IMG/VR virus record: IMGVR_UViG_3300030035_000081
Location: 1 to 64,000 of that record
Length of the DNA stretch: 64,000 nucleotides
Reading direction: 5' to 3' (one strand)
From: a virus
Taxonomy: Duplodnaviria > Heunggongvirae > Uroviricota > Caudoviricetes
The position numbers and the translations under genes were made by a program. Positions within the stretch are counted from its first letter, which is position 1. Every line of letters begins with the position of its first letter. The notes under the pieces were generated by a model that did no database searches, was not told the DNA's origin, and was given only the letters and a program-made list of their open reading frames with translations. This document shows, piece by piece, positions 6,085-52,033 of the stretch.

Positions 6085-6112
6085 TGCGGAATCGTGCGAA
6101 TTGCGGACAATT
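6085..6112 (+). promoter_or_regulatory. island promoter family member 1: -35 TTGCGG, 16-nt spacer AATCGTGCGAATTGCG, -10 GACAAT
   Basis: Seen in sequence. Drives a 380-nt leader and the flotillin gene. Confidence 0.6.
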
Positions 6113-6119
6113 AAAGACA

Positions 6120-6499
6120 GAGCGATTGCGAGATGGGGCGATACCGATGCAGTAGGAATGAGAATCTTAGCAGCTAAAAGAGTCAACAACCCCGCCTAAA
6201 CCGGTTCGCCGGTTATAGACGGGGCTTGCGGGGCAACCTGTAAGCCCAGTTGATTAGCCTAAGCCCATTGCTCCGGCAGTGGGGAAAACTACGTTGTGTA
6301 CTAATAATATAGGCACCTTATCCATGCTCCACAAGTGGTGAGCTCTGCAGGCGTTTCGTTAAACATCTCCGAGGGGAGGAGAAGTGCGAGCGTCATGTCG
6401 AAAGGCTAAAACAGTGCATAACATTGGCGAAGTGGACCACAGGACGCAAGTCCTGACTTATAGTTTTATTACTATTTTACGAATGGAGAAACAAAAATT
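6120..6499 (+). promoter_or_regulatory. long structured 5' leader with a terminator-like hairpin (AGGACGCAAGTCCT plus T-rich tract) immediately before the flotillin start
   Basis: No ORF. GC-rich stems such as CCCCGCC...GGCGGGG. Hairpin plus U-tract at about 6436-6480. Confidence 0.35.
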
Positions 6500-8143
6500 A
6501 TGGTATATGTGATTGCGATTGTGGCAGCCCTGATTATTCTCTTTGGATTTCTCTGCTACAAGAAAGCTCCGCCCACGGAGGCTATCGTTGTGACCGGCTT
6601 TGGTCTGTCTAAGCCTAAAGTGGTTTGCGGAAAGGGTACATTTGTTCTGCCCGTTCTTCAACGGGCTGACCGACTGAATATGCGCCTTTTGAAAATCGAT
6701 GTCAAGACTCCTGAAACAGGTGTTAAGACGAAGAACGGCGTAAGTCTCTGGATTGACTCTGTTGTCACGATTCAAGTCTACAGCGAAAACTCTACCGTTC
6801 TGGATGAAGAAGTGAAGGCATCCGGTCTGAAAGACGCCAAGGCGTACATCATGTCCCGACAACAGGCAGCCATCTCGAACTTTCTGGGCATGAACGAGCA
6901 GGGCATCAATGAGAAAGTTAATGACGTTCTGCAGGGCAATTTGCGTGAGATTGTCTCTGACATGACCGTTGACCAAATTCTGACGAACCGCAAGCAGATG
7001 GCTGTGAGCGTTATCGAGAATGCTCGCCCCGACCTTGCTAAGATGGGACTTGAGGTCGTGACTTTTAATGTCCAGGACATCAGGGATGCAGTGGATGTTC
7101 AAGGCCACAATCACGGCGTTATCGAAGCTATCGGCATCGAACAGGAAGAGCTCGTAAAGAAACAGGCTGAAATTGCCCGTGCTCAGGCTGCCCGTGATGT
7201 AGCCTGCGCGAAGGCCGATGCTGAGATGGCTGCAAATGCCAAGGAAGTTGAAGCGCAGACTGCGATTGCAAAACGCAACAATGAATTGCAGCTCGCCAAG
7301 GCAAAGCTGAAAGCTGAAGCTGATAAAGCTGCGGCTGACGCAGATGCTGCCGGTCAGATTCAGATGAATCTCCGCGCCAAAGAAATCAAAGAAGCGGAAG
7401 CGGATGCTGAAATCGCCAAGCAGAAGAAAATGGTAGACCTTGCCGCACAGGAAGCCGAGGTCCAACAACGCAAACTGGATGCGGAAGTCCGCAAACAGGC
7501 AGATGCTGACCTGTACCGCCGCCAGAAAGAGGCAGAAGCCAAGAAATATGAGGCGGAACGTGCAGCTGAGGCACAGAAGTTCTCCAAGCAGCAGGAAGCA
7601 GAAGGCATTGAGCTTGTCGGTAAGGCAGAAGCTGAAGCGATTCGTCAGAAAGGCTTGGCTGAAGCGGAAGCCATGAAACAGAAAGCAGAGGCATATAAGC
7701 AGTATAACGATGCGGCTGTGGCTGAAATGCTCATCAAGGTTCTTCCTGACATTGCCAAGAGCGTGGCTCAGCCTTTGTCCAGCATTGATAAGGTTTCTAT
7801 CATTGGCGGTGATGCCTCCGGCGTATCCGGCGTTTCCGGGAACGTTCCTATCCTGATGGCCCAAACCATGCAGACGGTGAAAGAAGCGACCGGCATTGAC
7901 ATGGGCGAAATTGTCCGTGCCAACAGCATCCAGGCAAAGACAGACCGCAACATCAACATTATGACTCAATGTGAACAGCCTGAGAATAACAAAGAGAAAG
8001 GAGGTGCCAAGGCAATGGAACGCGTAGAAGGCGGCTATCTGATTCATGAGAAGAATCTCAACGGTGAGGAAGTCACTCATTTTCGACCGGATGTGACCGA
8101 AGAAGAGAAGGCTATCATGAAAGACAAAAAGGCCAAAGATTAA
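6500..8143 (+). CDS. flotillin-family SPFH/band-7 protein (YqiK/FloT-like)
   Basis: N-terminal TM helix and SPFH domain, then a long EA-rich coiled-coil with KAEAE repeats. 547 aa. Confidence 0.85.
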   Translation: MVYVIAIVAALIILFGFLCYKKAPPTEAIVVTGFGLSKPKVVCGKGTFVLPVLQRADRLNMRLLKIDVKTPETGVKTKNGVSLWIDSVVTIQVYSENSTVLDEEVKASGLKDAKAYIMSRQQAAISNFLGMNEQGINEKVNDVLQGNLREIVSDMTVDQILTNRKQMAVSVIENARPDLAKMGLEVVTFNVQDIRDAVDVQGHNHGVIEAIGIEQEELVKKQAEIARAQAARDVACAKADAEMAANAKEVEAQTAIAKRNNELQLAKAKLKAEADKAAADADAAGQIQMNLRAKEIKEAEADAEIAKQKKMVDLAAQEAEVQQRKLDAEVRKQADADLYRRQKEAEAKKYEAERAAEAQKFSKQQEAEGIELVGKAEAEAIRQKGLAEAEAMKQKAEAYKQYNDAAVAEMLIKVLPDIAKSVAQPLSSIDKVSIIGGDASGVSGVSGNVPILMAQTMQTVKEATGIDMGEIVRANSIQAKTDRNINIMTQCEQPENNKEKGGAKAMERVEGGYLIHEKNLNGEEVTHFRPDVTEEEKAIMKDKKAKD

Positions 8144-8263
8144 AGACAACATGAAAAGAGGGTGACTCGAAAGAGCCATCCTTTTTTCTGTTGTGACGCA
8201 AACGAAAAGTTCATGGTAGCCATCCAATTTGGGTGACTGTCTTTTTTGCATGTTAAGGCTTTG

Positions 8264-8291
8264 TTGCTGAATTGTGCGAATTGAAGATAAT
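8264..8291 (+). promoter_or_regulatory. island promoter family member 2: -35 TTGCTG, spacer AATTGTGCGAATTGAA, -10 GATAAT
   Basis: Seen in sequence, upstream of 8346 gene. Confidence 0.6.
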
Positions 8292-8345
8292 TAAAAACAA
8301 AAGATGCTTTGTATCAAATCGATTGAAACCGAAGAGGTGAAGTTA

Positions 8346-50887: not shown

Positions 50888-51008
50888 TACTCCTAGAACG
50901 AAACTTTGATTCGGGTTCTTTCAGCAAAAAGCGTAGGAACCAAAATCATACGAAATGATTGTGTTAACACATAAAAACAAGTATAATATATGCAAGGAAG
51001 TGATAATA

Positions 51009-51461
51009 ATGGTTCTGTATCATGGCAGCGATGTAATAGTCCGCAACCCTGAGGTCAGAAAAACAAGGTACGCCAAAGATTTTTCATGGGGATTCTATTG
51101 CACTAGCAACTACGAACAAGCCGCTCGCTGGTCAAAAAAAGGCAGGTCTCGTGGTATTGTCAACGTGTTTGAATATACAGAATCTCCTATGCTAAATATT
51201 AAGAAATTCCCCGAAATGAGTGATGAGTGGCTTGATTTTATTGCTATATGTCGTTCGGGCAAACATCATGACTATGATATTGTGGAAGGACCCATGGCGG
51301 ATGACACCATTTGGAACTACGTCAACGACTTTCTAAGCGGTGATATTAGCCGTGAAGCTTTTTGGGCGTTGGCAAAATTCAAGCATCCCACGCATCAAAT
51401 CAGCTTTCACACGGAAGTCGCTTTGAAATGTCTCTCTTTTAAGGAGGCGATTGAAGTATGA
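51009..51461 (+). CDS. DUF3990-like protein
   Basis: MVLYHGS opening typical of DUF3990. Paired with a downstream DUF3791-like gene. Confidence 0.5.
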   Translation: MVLYHGSDVIVRNPEVRKTRYAKDFSWGFYCTSNYEQAARWSKKGRSRGIVNVFEYTESPMLNIKKFPEMSDEWLDFIAICRSGKHHDYDIVEGPMADDTIWNYVNDFLSGDISREAFWALAKFKHPTHQISFHTEVALKCLSFKEAIEV

Positions 51462-51907
51462 CTGAAACTGCAACCTACAGCAAAAACGATGTCTTTTATA
51501 CCTGCAGCCTGATTGAATATATCGGCCGCGTTACGAGGAATCATCGCAAGGATGTGGTTTCTGCTCTTGGCACAAACGGAGTCAAGGCAATTCTCGACTC
51601 AGCGGATGTGTTTCACTGCCAGAGCTTTGAGCAATCTGCCGATGAAATTTGTGAGCTTTTTCCTGTGCCGGAAGGAACGTATGATACGGTGTCTAACTGC
51701 CATTACAAGGTTCCATCTTATACAGATATCGGAAAAGTGTACCAGCGCATCATCTTTGACTGTACTAGCACTCCTAGTGTCCAGGATGTAATTGATGTAT
51801 TTTCCTCGTTCATTAGCGATGACATCTCAGATTTTAATACTGCAACTTACTATTGTAATCCGAGCTATTTGTACCACTCATACAAGGCCGGAAAACTACT
51901 GGATTGA
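51458..51907 (+). CDS. DUF3791-like protein
   Basis: Overlapping start and stop with the DUF3990 gene. Family assignment from memory of architecture. Confidence 0.45.
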   Translation: MTETATYSKNDVFYTCSLIEYIGRVTRNHRKDVVSALGTNGVKAILDSADVFHCQSFEQSADEICELFPVPEGTYDTVSNCHYKVPSYTDIGKVYQRIIFDCTSTPSVQDVIDVFSSFISDDISDFNTATYYCNPSYLYHSYKAGKLLD

Positions 51908-51928
51908 TTTTCAAAAGCAATAGCAATC

Positions 51929-51968
51929 AAGACCACTGCCCCAAAAAGGGTGGTGGTCTTATTTTTTT
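51929..51968 (+). terminator. intrinsic terminator
   Basis: AAGACCAC...GTGGTCTT plus T-run. Confidence 0.65.
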
Positions 51969-52005
51969 GCACAACACTTACCATAAATTACCAGAAAGAA
52001 AAACA

Positions 52006-52033
52006 TTGTGCATCTGTGCGAATTGCATATAAT
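52006..52033 (+). promoter_or_regulatory. island promoter family member 14: -35 TTGTGC, spacer ATCTGTGCGAATTGCA, -10 TATAAT
   Basis: Seen in sequence. Confidence 0.6.

Follow-up and report, generated by a model that had tools for sequence, protein, structure and literature searches.

What does it mean when the spacer of a promoter, and not only its -35 and -10 hexamers, is kept the same throughout a region of a viral genome? The question is raised by positions 1 to 64,000 of the IMG/VR virus record IMGVR_UViG_3300030035_000081 (Duplodnaviria; Heunggongvirae; Uroviricota; Caudoviricetes); this whole stretch of 64,000 nucleotides is the window referred to below. A sequence-only reading had listed 15 plus-strand promoters between 6085 and 52033 that share a conserved spacer element, and had taken the element for an operator or a specificity element of a self-regulated mobile replicon. 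We found that the element marks a sharply defined family of sites that is widespread among phages, and we give a probability of roughly 45% to the reading in which these sites are the promoters of one transcription class of the phage, placed under unified control by a phage factor.

All 15 listed positions carry the described arrangement of -35, spacer block and -10, and stand before co-oriented, promoter-like plus-strand units. A position weight matrix (PWM) built from them and run over the window gave 17 matches between 5.9 and 52 kb, every one on the plus strand; the minus strand, 1-5.9 kb and 52.1-64 kb (the tRNA region) were free of matches. Two of the 17, a strong copy at 5917-5944 and a weak one at 34998-35025, had been overlooked. 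The pattern TTG-N8-TGCGA-N6-KAYRAT with at most one mismatch matched 16 times, always on the plus strand, against 0.24 (standard deviation 0.53) expected from dinucleotide shuffles, and the exact 10-mer GTGCGAATTG was present in 7 window sites, also all on the plus strand. The general layout is TTGCnn, a 16-nt spacer holding (T)GTGCGAATTGC, and then TACAAT, GACAAT or TATAAT; the frame TTGCnn-16-kAyAAT was found in 15 of the 17 copies. Some details had to be corrected: the spacing, said to be constant, is 16 nt in 15 of the 17 sites but 15 nt at 18650; a TTG at the -35 is general but missing at 36031; and the invariant core of the spacer is TGCGAA at about -23 to -18, rather than a block at -22 to -13. 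The predicted promoter copies in the window are:

5917-5944, plus strand: TTGCGC-16-TACAAT with GTGCGAAC; short RNA ending at terminator 6044-6078
6084-6111, plus strand: TTGCGG-16-GACAAT; upstream of the HEARO/IscB-type RNA 6182-6442 and a flotillin-like gene
8264-8291, plus strand: TTGCTG-16-GATAAT; upstream of gene 8346-9149 and a VWA gene
12438-12465, plus strand: core GTGCAAATTG; terminator 12337-12362 before it, PLD-nuclease gene after it
15024-15051, plus strand: upstream of the two-repeat Mor-type helix-turn-helix (HTH) gene 15135-15602
16234-16261, plus strand: upstream of genes 16301-18510
18650-18676, plus strand: degenerate copy, TTGCAA-15-TATAAT, core GTGCGATATC
19374-19401, plus strand: followed by leader terminator 19435-19461
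25658-25685, plus strand: TAAGATAAATAA at +3 to +14; leader terminator 25710-25736
34998-35025, plus strand: weak or uncertain copy, TTGACT-16-TAGAAT, core ATGCGATTTGCC
35404-35431, plus strand: upstream of gene 35480-35800
35925-35952, plus strand: TTGACC-16-TACAAT, degenerate core; predicted RNA of about 75 nt that starts TGTACGACAGATA and ends at terminator 36002-36027
36031-36058, plus strand: no TTG at the -35, core GTGCGAGTTGCG; upstream of gene 36083-36490 and a Macro-like gene
38263-38290, plus strand: TAAGAT at +3 to +8; leader terminator 38314-38348; UvrD-like helicase gene downstream
44004-44031, plus strand: core ATACGAAC; diverged leader RNA 44038-44120 (terminator 44084-44118), then an MBL gene
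47014-47041, plus strand: conserved structured leader RNA directly after it
52006-52033, plus strand: leader terminator 52098-52125; operon of three HTH-array genes downstream

Sets of sites retrieved with the motif are selected through the motif itself, so an independent sample was made through the 5' end of the structured leader RNA, which in the window has two copies:

47048-47151, plus strand: leader RNA of about 100 nt, structured, strong copy
44038-44120, plus strand: leader RNA, diverged copy

Helix P1 of this leader begins at +1, where UGUACGA pairs with UCGUACA; P2 is a variable hairpin with compensatory (covarying) changes, and it is followed by the conserved linker AUUCACAAU and by a covarying intrinsic terminator (47115-47148) with its U-run. 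Covariation affected 7 of the 14 pairs of the terminator stem, and 92.5% of the cells of the leader alignment were paired, versus 36-51% when the 3' partners were slid. With a covariance model, 46 leader copies were found in 866 kb of related loci, before different genes, and in related phages (loci L059, L178, L219 and others) the leader is repeated up to 6-7 times per 11-14 kb. Searched against Rfam 15, the leader 47048-47151 had no match at the gathering threshold, and none appeared at E <= 5 in 43900-47300. The distance from the -10 box to the beginning of P1 is exactly 7 nt, which would fit a transcription start at that point.

Scanning for the leader 5' end TGTACGATAGATANCA yielded at least 117 loci with 129 unique upstream sequences. 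Their logo had TTGC at -34 to -31, TAnAAT at -12 to -7 and, between them, TGCGAA at -23 to -18, whose 0.9-1.7 bits per position put its conservation at about the level of the -35 TTG and the -10 TAnAAT. The claimed conservation of the spacer therefore holds in 129 promoters picked without reference to the spacer. The conserved block comprises 12 nt of the 16-nt spacer, (TG)TGCGAA(TTGC), the flanking TG and TTGC being weaker than the core. The -10 box is kAyAAT, its first base being G instead of T in 37 of 132 unique promoters and 64 of 175 sites (about 28-37%), and the -35 consensus is T-n-G-C-n-n-A (T-T/n-G-C). An A-rich discriminator is conserved too, and in a subset of promoters the conservation runs on into the first ~14 transcribed bases.

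Could such likeness simply reflect a promoter cassette recently copied round the genome? The copies are very similar and the cassettes (terminator, promoter, leader, gene) look modular, as such an origin would have it. But the promoter copies fall in 45 unrelated downstream sequence contexts, among which the flanks beyond about -24 and +25 cannot be aligned, and this excludes a simple recent duplication; flanking sequence and variable positions of the spacer have fully diverged while the core stayed fixed in all 45 contexts and in many phage genomes, and orthologous copies hold the core while their leader hairpins covary. Similarity by descent is thus next to negligible as an explanation of the block.

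The motif is specific to phage. At least 115 IMG/VR viral stretches, on contigs of up to 247 kb, were matched in a motif search, and the viral loci held 234 PWM matches in 984 kb, co-oriented within each locus. By contrast, 185,579 bacterial and archaeal genomes gave just 51 matches to the 19-mer, about the number expected by chance (a rough estimate from the size of the collection), and only 3 of those 51 loci were valid by PWM, two of them on one 224-kb phage-like contig and the third a singleton (L150); beyond chance, the motif is absent from bacterial genomes. A spacer block selected as strongly as the -35 and -10, and absent from bacterial genomes, amounts to a phage-specific recognition element that defines a regulon. 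In this respect the sequence-only reading was right, although operator, activator site and sigma specificity are not separable by sequence alone.

The same figures bear on the idea that the block is the site of a host regulator, for instance one like Spo0A, which the phage exploits to couple itself to host physiology. TGTGCGAA is similar to the 0A box (TGTCGAA), as is its core CGAA(C/T) to a LexA/Cheo half-site; moreover, the position inside early-type promoters is that of the 0A boxes of phi29. Nevertheless, the canonical TGTCGAA occurs in none of the copies, the extra G and C are present in 96-100% of them, there is no second LexA half-site, and none of the bacterial genomes in the 185,579-species collection is enriched for the motif. 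We consider a host regulator highly improbable.

Several known elements were compared with the block and set aside. The spacing is wrong for sigma-54 (TGGCAC-N5-TTGC), and for the ComX/SigH box (TACGAATA) the distance to the other elements is wrong; the SigE/SigK -10 (CATACAnT) matches the -10 region with a misfit at the -35. Compared with the Spo0A box there is one extra, invariant base; the second half-site is missing for a LexA/Cheo box and poor for palindromes of the Rex/CRP type. The promoter of the AR9 non-virion polymerase (AACA-N6-TW) could not be aligned, and GAATTG is not the palindromic site of an EcoRI/MunI-type methylase. In addition, a second, overlapping promoter with TGCGAA as its -35 was rejected, the second position of its would-be -10 being A or G about equally.

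A full-text literature search for GTGCGAATTG returned unrelated primer sequences only and revealed no description of the motif; a separate search on gut jumbo phages brought up nothing relevant. The motif is a sharply defined, widespread regulon signal with a predicted reader protein.

The replicon itself, which the sequence-only reading had left as phage or plasmid-like, proved to be a huge phage of about 270-282 kb, judging from its source scaffold and its relatives. Exact protein matches put the window on a human-gut metagenome scaffold of 281,928 bp; relatives measure 270-272 kb, and in them genes for AcrVA2-like, Lar and phage-lysozyme proteins adjoin the right end of the window. Megablast of 6-30 kb against phage and plasmid collections found no match, and clusters of the HTH proteins described below contain 500-960 member sequences each. 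Phage-like gene content, scaffold, relatives and viral motif matches together identify an uncultured huge phage (~280 kb) that is very common in the human gut; its host is presumably a Firmicute. Copies of the promoter family also occur outside the window on both sides (L170-L175 and L167 18563), those of L170-L175 lying ~6.8 and 8.5 kb to the right of an HD_4 gene (~3.4 and 5.1 kb past the right edge), and the genes behind the outside copies include one of 80 residues and those for a phage lysozyme and a metallophosphatase. The 46-kb span seen here is therefore not the whole regulon. Within this span, a stretch of lower GC content (41-46%) at ~26000-35000, with DUF4379, EcoRI-like methylase, DUF4238 and GmrSD-HNH genes, lacks the family altogether; its promoter-like sites are of the ordinary extended -10 kind, and the stretch may have been inserted later.

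Which protein might read TGCGAA? To our knowledge, no sigma-70-family factor reads bases at -23 to -18, so that an extra protein is the simplest reader, and the asymmetry and single orientation of the motif indicate that this reader is probably monomeric or built of tandem domains. The candidates encoded in the promoter arm are:

15135-15602, plus strand: candidate trans factor with two Mor/C-type HTH units
52146-52673, 52663-53181 and 53186-54139, plus strand: candidate trans factors with 3, 3 and 6 Mor/C-type HTH units
46282-46884, minus strand: HTH_7-type regulator gene, candidate regulator

The four tandem-HTH genes had already been pointed out at 15135, 52146, 52663 and 53186, and profile matches confirmed them: their units match the DNA-binding module of the Mor/C-type late activators of Mu (Pfam Mor, HTH_23/28; PHROG 532, 836). 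The AlphaFold model of 52663-53181 (predicted local distance difference test, pLDDT, 79) consists of three tri-helical units, for which the Foldseek similarities, to the DNA-binding domains of Mor, Tc3, paired and CENP-B, were no more than local. No PDB entry was significantly similar in sequence to the HTH proteins, and tblastn of the six-repeat protein against the phage collection gave no match; for homologues of the 172-residue protein, identity in the aligned part was never below 62% and seldom below 73%, with no distant relatives. The HTH-array genes sit behind the family promoters 15024 and 52006, an arrangement that allows autoregulation.

Apart from 45442-46269, nothing in the promoter arm but the HTH_7-type gene is coded on the minus strand; its promoter, a canonical TTGACA-17-TATAGT (46939 to 46911), is divergent from promoter 47014. 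The XRE regulator announced by the earlier reading is also present: it is a 73-residue XRE/CI-like HTH gene at 62781-63002 (plus strand), identified by position from relatives and located at the tRNA cluster, where a 123-residue HTH gene is found as well at 63552-63923 (minus strand), with weak sigma-70 region-4-type matches in relatives. This pair, flanking the tRNA cluster, may be a regulatory switch region. We regard the HTH-array, HTH_7 and XRE proteins as candidate readers of the motif only; the factor may also be encoded in the ~218 kb of the genome that lie outside the window.

The existence of these HTH genes also suits a different role for the block, that of a repressor operator through which an early shut-off factor, or a factor of immunity or of a carrier state, silences the whole class. 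A site between -35 and -10 is where a bound protein occludes the polymerase, the frame is usable as a sigma-A promoter without any factor, and not only are XRE/CI-like and other HTH genes nearby, but the HTH-array operon stands behind a family promoter, where it could regulate itself. The motif is, besides, asymmetric, present in many copies and in one orientation relative to transcription, like stoperators (PMC9283540, PMC6550527). What speaks against repression is the behaviour of the poorest promoters. Copies with TAGC, TGGC or TTTT at the -35 retain perfect cores, and copies with G at the first -10 position match the core better (11.2 of 12 positions) than the others (9.9 of 12), so that the best cores are kept precisely where the hexamers are poor; this hints that the element would aid transcription rather than block it. 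Furthermore, all sites lie within promoters and none within or between genes, where it could block elongation, and an operator leaves the leader terminators, and the terminators with no promoter after them, unexplained. Repression is accordingly possible but doubtful.

We also considered that the 35-40-bp block might as a whole be the recognition sequence of a phage sigma factor, or of a phage-modified or phage-encoded polymerase, that reads TGCGAA. Sigma factors or polymerases of their own are common in huge phages. Conservation is unbroken from the -35 to about +3, with the spacer as strong as the hexamers, the -10 is non-canonical (kAyAAT, G first in about a third) and so is the -35 (T-n-G-C-n-n-A), and a second class of canonical TTGACn-17-TATAAT promoters, which lack the spacer block, coexists in the tRNA region and on the minus strand. 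Against this, sigma-70-family factors are not known to read -23 to -18, the hexamers and the 16-bp spacing suit host sigma-A well, and tblastn with region 2 and region 4 queries, which is a weak test, brought up no sigma region-2-like open reading frame (ORF) from the window or from related loci amounting to 1.4 Mb; profile scans of the window proteins gave weak region-4-like HTH matches only. A phage sigma or polymerase is in our view unlikely.

The reading we prefer, class-wide control by a phage factor, has to account for what lies around the promoters as well. A strong terminator precedes the promoter in 111 of the 180 copies of the clade, with plus-strand genes after it. Downstream, 8 of the 17 window promoters are followed after ~40-125 nt by a leader terminator (strong hairpin and U-run), which precedes the ribosome-binding site or the next promoter; such terminators occur in 76 of the 180 clade copies, versus 6.5% of random same-strand windows, and in 13 of 45 when counted by independent context. 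Between 6 and 55 kb, 11 of the 20 strong plus-strand terminators have a gene within 17-130 nt and no promoter in between (for example those at 19702-19726, 28030-28058, 49403-49430 and 54141-54160), and expression of a gene so placed therefore needs read-through.

Units with leader terminators often begin TA(A/C)GAT(A)(A/G)ATAA. Seven of the 45 contexts have a -10-like nA.GAT at a single offset, +3 to +8, where the background is 0.005 per position; its variants TACGAT (which the leader 47048-47151 carries), TAAGAT and AACGAT are present in 7-8 of the 45 contexts and absent from most copies. A leader terminator followed in 7 of the 8 contexts that bear the element (Fisher p = 2.6e-4, for a pattern defined post hoc).

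Some of these units show peculiarities of their own. In unit 19374, a 65-residue hydrophobic ORF (19490-19687, plus strand) is boxed by the terminators 19435-19461 and 19702-19726, and the ResIII helicase gene after the latter has no promoter of its own. At 25750-25880, between the terminators 25710-25736 and 26123-26151, lies an apparent remnant of a DUF4379-type zinc-finger gene (ending ...YWVCTKCGRK*), which looks like a decayed cassette behind an intact promoter. Units 5917 and 35925 consist of a short terminated RNA only, followed by a second promoter.

An element between -35 and -10, an early -10-like hexamer and a terminator make up the cis-architecture of Q and AlpA units, and it is on this likeness that we propose antitermination loaded at the promoter. 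In lambda the -10-like sequence is AACGAT. Q and AlpA need an element between the -35 and -10, an early -10-like sequence and a downstream terminator (PMC9371919; PMC6606751; PMC9388147), the -10-like sequence of AlpA being CACGAT at -1 to +5 (PMC9371919). In the phage studied here, a host holoenzyme of the sigma-A type would supply recognition of the -35 and -10, and a phage DNA-binding protein would dock at TGCGAA and act on the polymerase. At the subset of promoters, about a third, with a pause-like element and a leader terminator, the factor would be handed to the paused polymerase, which, once loaded, would become resistant to termination and cross both leader terminators and those between genes; at the remaining promoters the same factor would be a class-specific activator. 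Taken to its full extent, this would be a genome-wide, multi-promoter regulation of the Q/AlpA type, with dozens of qut-like loading sites and a new factor, possibly an HTH-array protein, that would carry polymerase past the terminators by which each accessory-gene cassette is otherwise insulated; by analogy we put it forward tentatively, as less than likely. The leader, if antitermination took place, would be a cis-regulatory RNA taking part in the switch, a part of the proposal that is doubtful to the same degree as the whole.

Several points weigh against this interpretation. The -10-like pattern was chosen after viewing the data. The -10-like element and the leader terminator are both missing from about two thirds of the promoters, so that a pure Q/AlpA role cannot cover the whole family. 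A protein at -23 to -18 would normally clash with the polymerase, which favours repression, and the statistic for compensation between core and hexamers is weak overall (rho -0.22) and affected by the ascertainment of sites. Leader hairpins with U-runs could instead make stand-alone small RNAs, exactly as at 5917 and 35925. Among the ~70 window ORFs scanned there was no match to a Q or AlpA family (Pfam, PHROG). Finally, promoter activity and start sites are things that we infer. The motif with its conservation and phage specificity, the terminators, the -10-like element and their associations are seen directly in the DNA; it is the binding of a protein and the sign of regulation that we infer, and the self-regulated replicon of the earlier reading stands as a phage with a regulon-defining block, the sign and the reader being predictions.

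The genes under this putative control form a co-oriented run of accessory, defence or anti-defence type, with genes for flotillin, VWA, PLD nuclease, ResIII and UvrD helicases, NADAR, Macro and DUF3990, and further for EcoRI-like methylase, GmrSD-HNH, radical SAM and AAA proteins. Two structured RNAs were recognized among them. At 6182-6442 (plus strand), behind the tandem promoters 5917 and 6084, there is a HEARO (IscB-associated, omega-type) RNA at the Rfam gathering level; the gene after it is flotillin-like, not IscB, and an IscB-like gene (RRXRR and HNH, 465 residues) lies ~9-11 kb to the left of the window edge (L167 12488-13885). A TnpB gene is located at 4446-5555 on the minus strand. 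A self-cleaving ribozyme of the hepatitis delta virus (HDV) type (Rfam HDV-F-prausnitzii, 60 bits) at 10872-10941 (plus strand) is placed inside a transcription unit, between the VWA gene and the next small ORF. To the right of the promoter arm, 57211-63564 (plus strand) contains 18 tRNA genes, with an odd anticodon call at 58634-58709; this array has canonical TTGACn-17-TATAAT promoters (56936, 61366, 62493) and no copy of the spacer motif.

The transcription programmes of uncultured huge gut phages are essentially unknown, and the motif provides a computer-scannable cis-code for one expression class, to which belong genes for anti-defence and host takeover, a guide RNA of the IscB type, candidate regulators and small RNAs. 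It allows transcription units to be annotated in hundreds of related contigs and sets a clear biochemical target, the reader of TGCGAA at -23 to -18, while the cassette of terminator, promoter, optional leader terminator and gene may serve as an insulated expression part. If antitermination were indeed at work, promoter-loaded antitermination would be extended from the single late promoters of proteobacterial phages to a many-promoter system, modular and in phages that presumably infect Firmicutes.

How, then, does the family compare with known systems? The strong early promoters of T4, T5 and SPO1 are likewise numerous, similar and co-oriented, precede accessory or host-takeover genes and have A-rich flanks. 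Outside the hexamers, however, they share no more than statistical preferences; in the family described here, the 6 bp of the spacer core are conserved to about the same degree as the hexamers. With the stoperators of Cluster A mycobacteriophages, which are read by a monomeric multi-domain HTH repressor (L5 gp71) and one of which overlaps an early promoter, the motif shares its shortness, asymmetry, many copies and single orientation. Stoperators, however, lie mostly outside promoters and block elongation, whereas every copy here is in promoter register and none is free-standing; sequence and host are also unrelated.

The middle promoters of T4 (MotA) and the Mor/C promoters of Mu combine, as would be the case here, a sigma-70 -10 with an extra box read by a phage activator, and the candidate proteins bear HTH modules of the Mor/C type. 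But the MotA box replaces the -35 at about -30, whereas the box described here is at -23 to -18 and the -35-like TTGC is kept. Mor and C sites lie upstream of or over a poor -35, are dyads and are bound by dimers, in contrast to a non-dyad site in the spacer, a retained TTGC and tandem arrays of 2-6 HTH units.

The units of Q (lambda, 21 and 82) and AlpA combine a QBE or ABE with a sigma-dependent pause element and a terminator. In common with the family, they have a sigma-70-type promoter with a conserved element between its two hexamers, a -10-like sequence at the beginning of the transcript (CACGAT in AlpA; here TACGAT, TAAGAT or AACGAT) and an intrinsic terminator shortly downstream, with genes behind it that have no promoter of their own; the terminator was found at 8 of the 17 window promoters, and 11 of 20 terminators had no promoter following. 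The differences are that there are dozens of copies per genome instead of one, that two copies in three are without pause-like element and leader terminator, that no homologue was found among ~70 window ORFs, and that the system described here, whose host is presumably a Firmicute, is known from sequence alone. The family works most like Q/AlpA for a subset of its promoters and like phage class-specific promoters (T4 MotA, Mu Mor/C) generally. The protein families of these systems are either absent here or have just a generic HTH in common with it, and the promoter family is a member of none of them.

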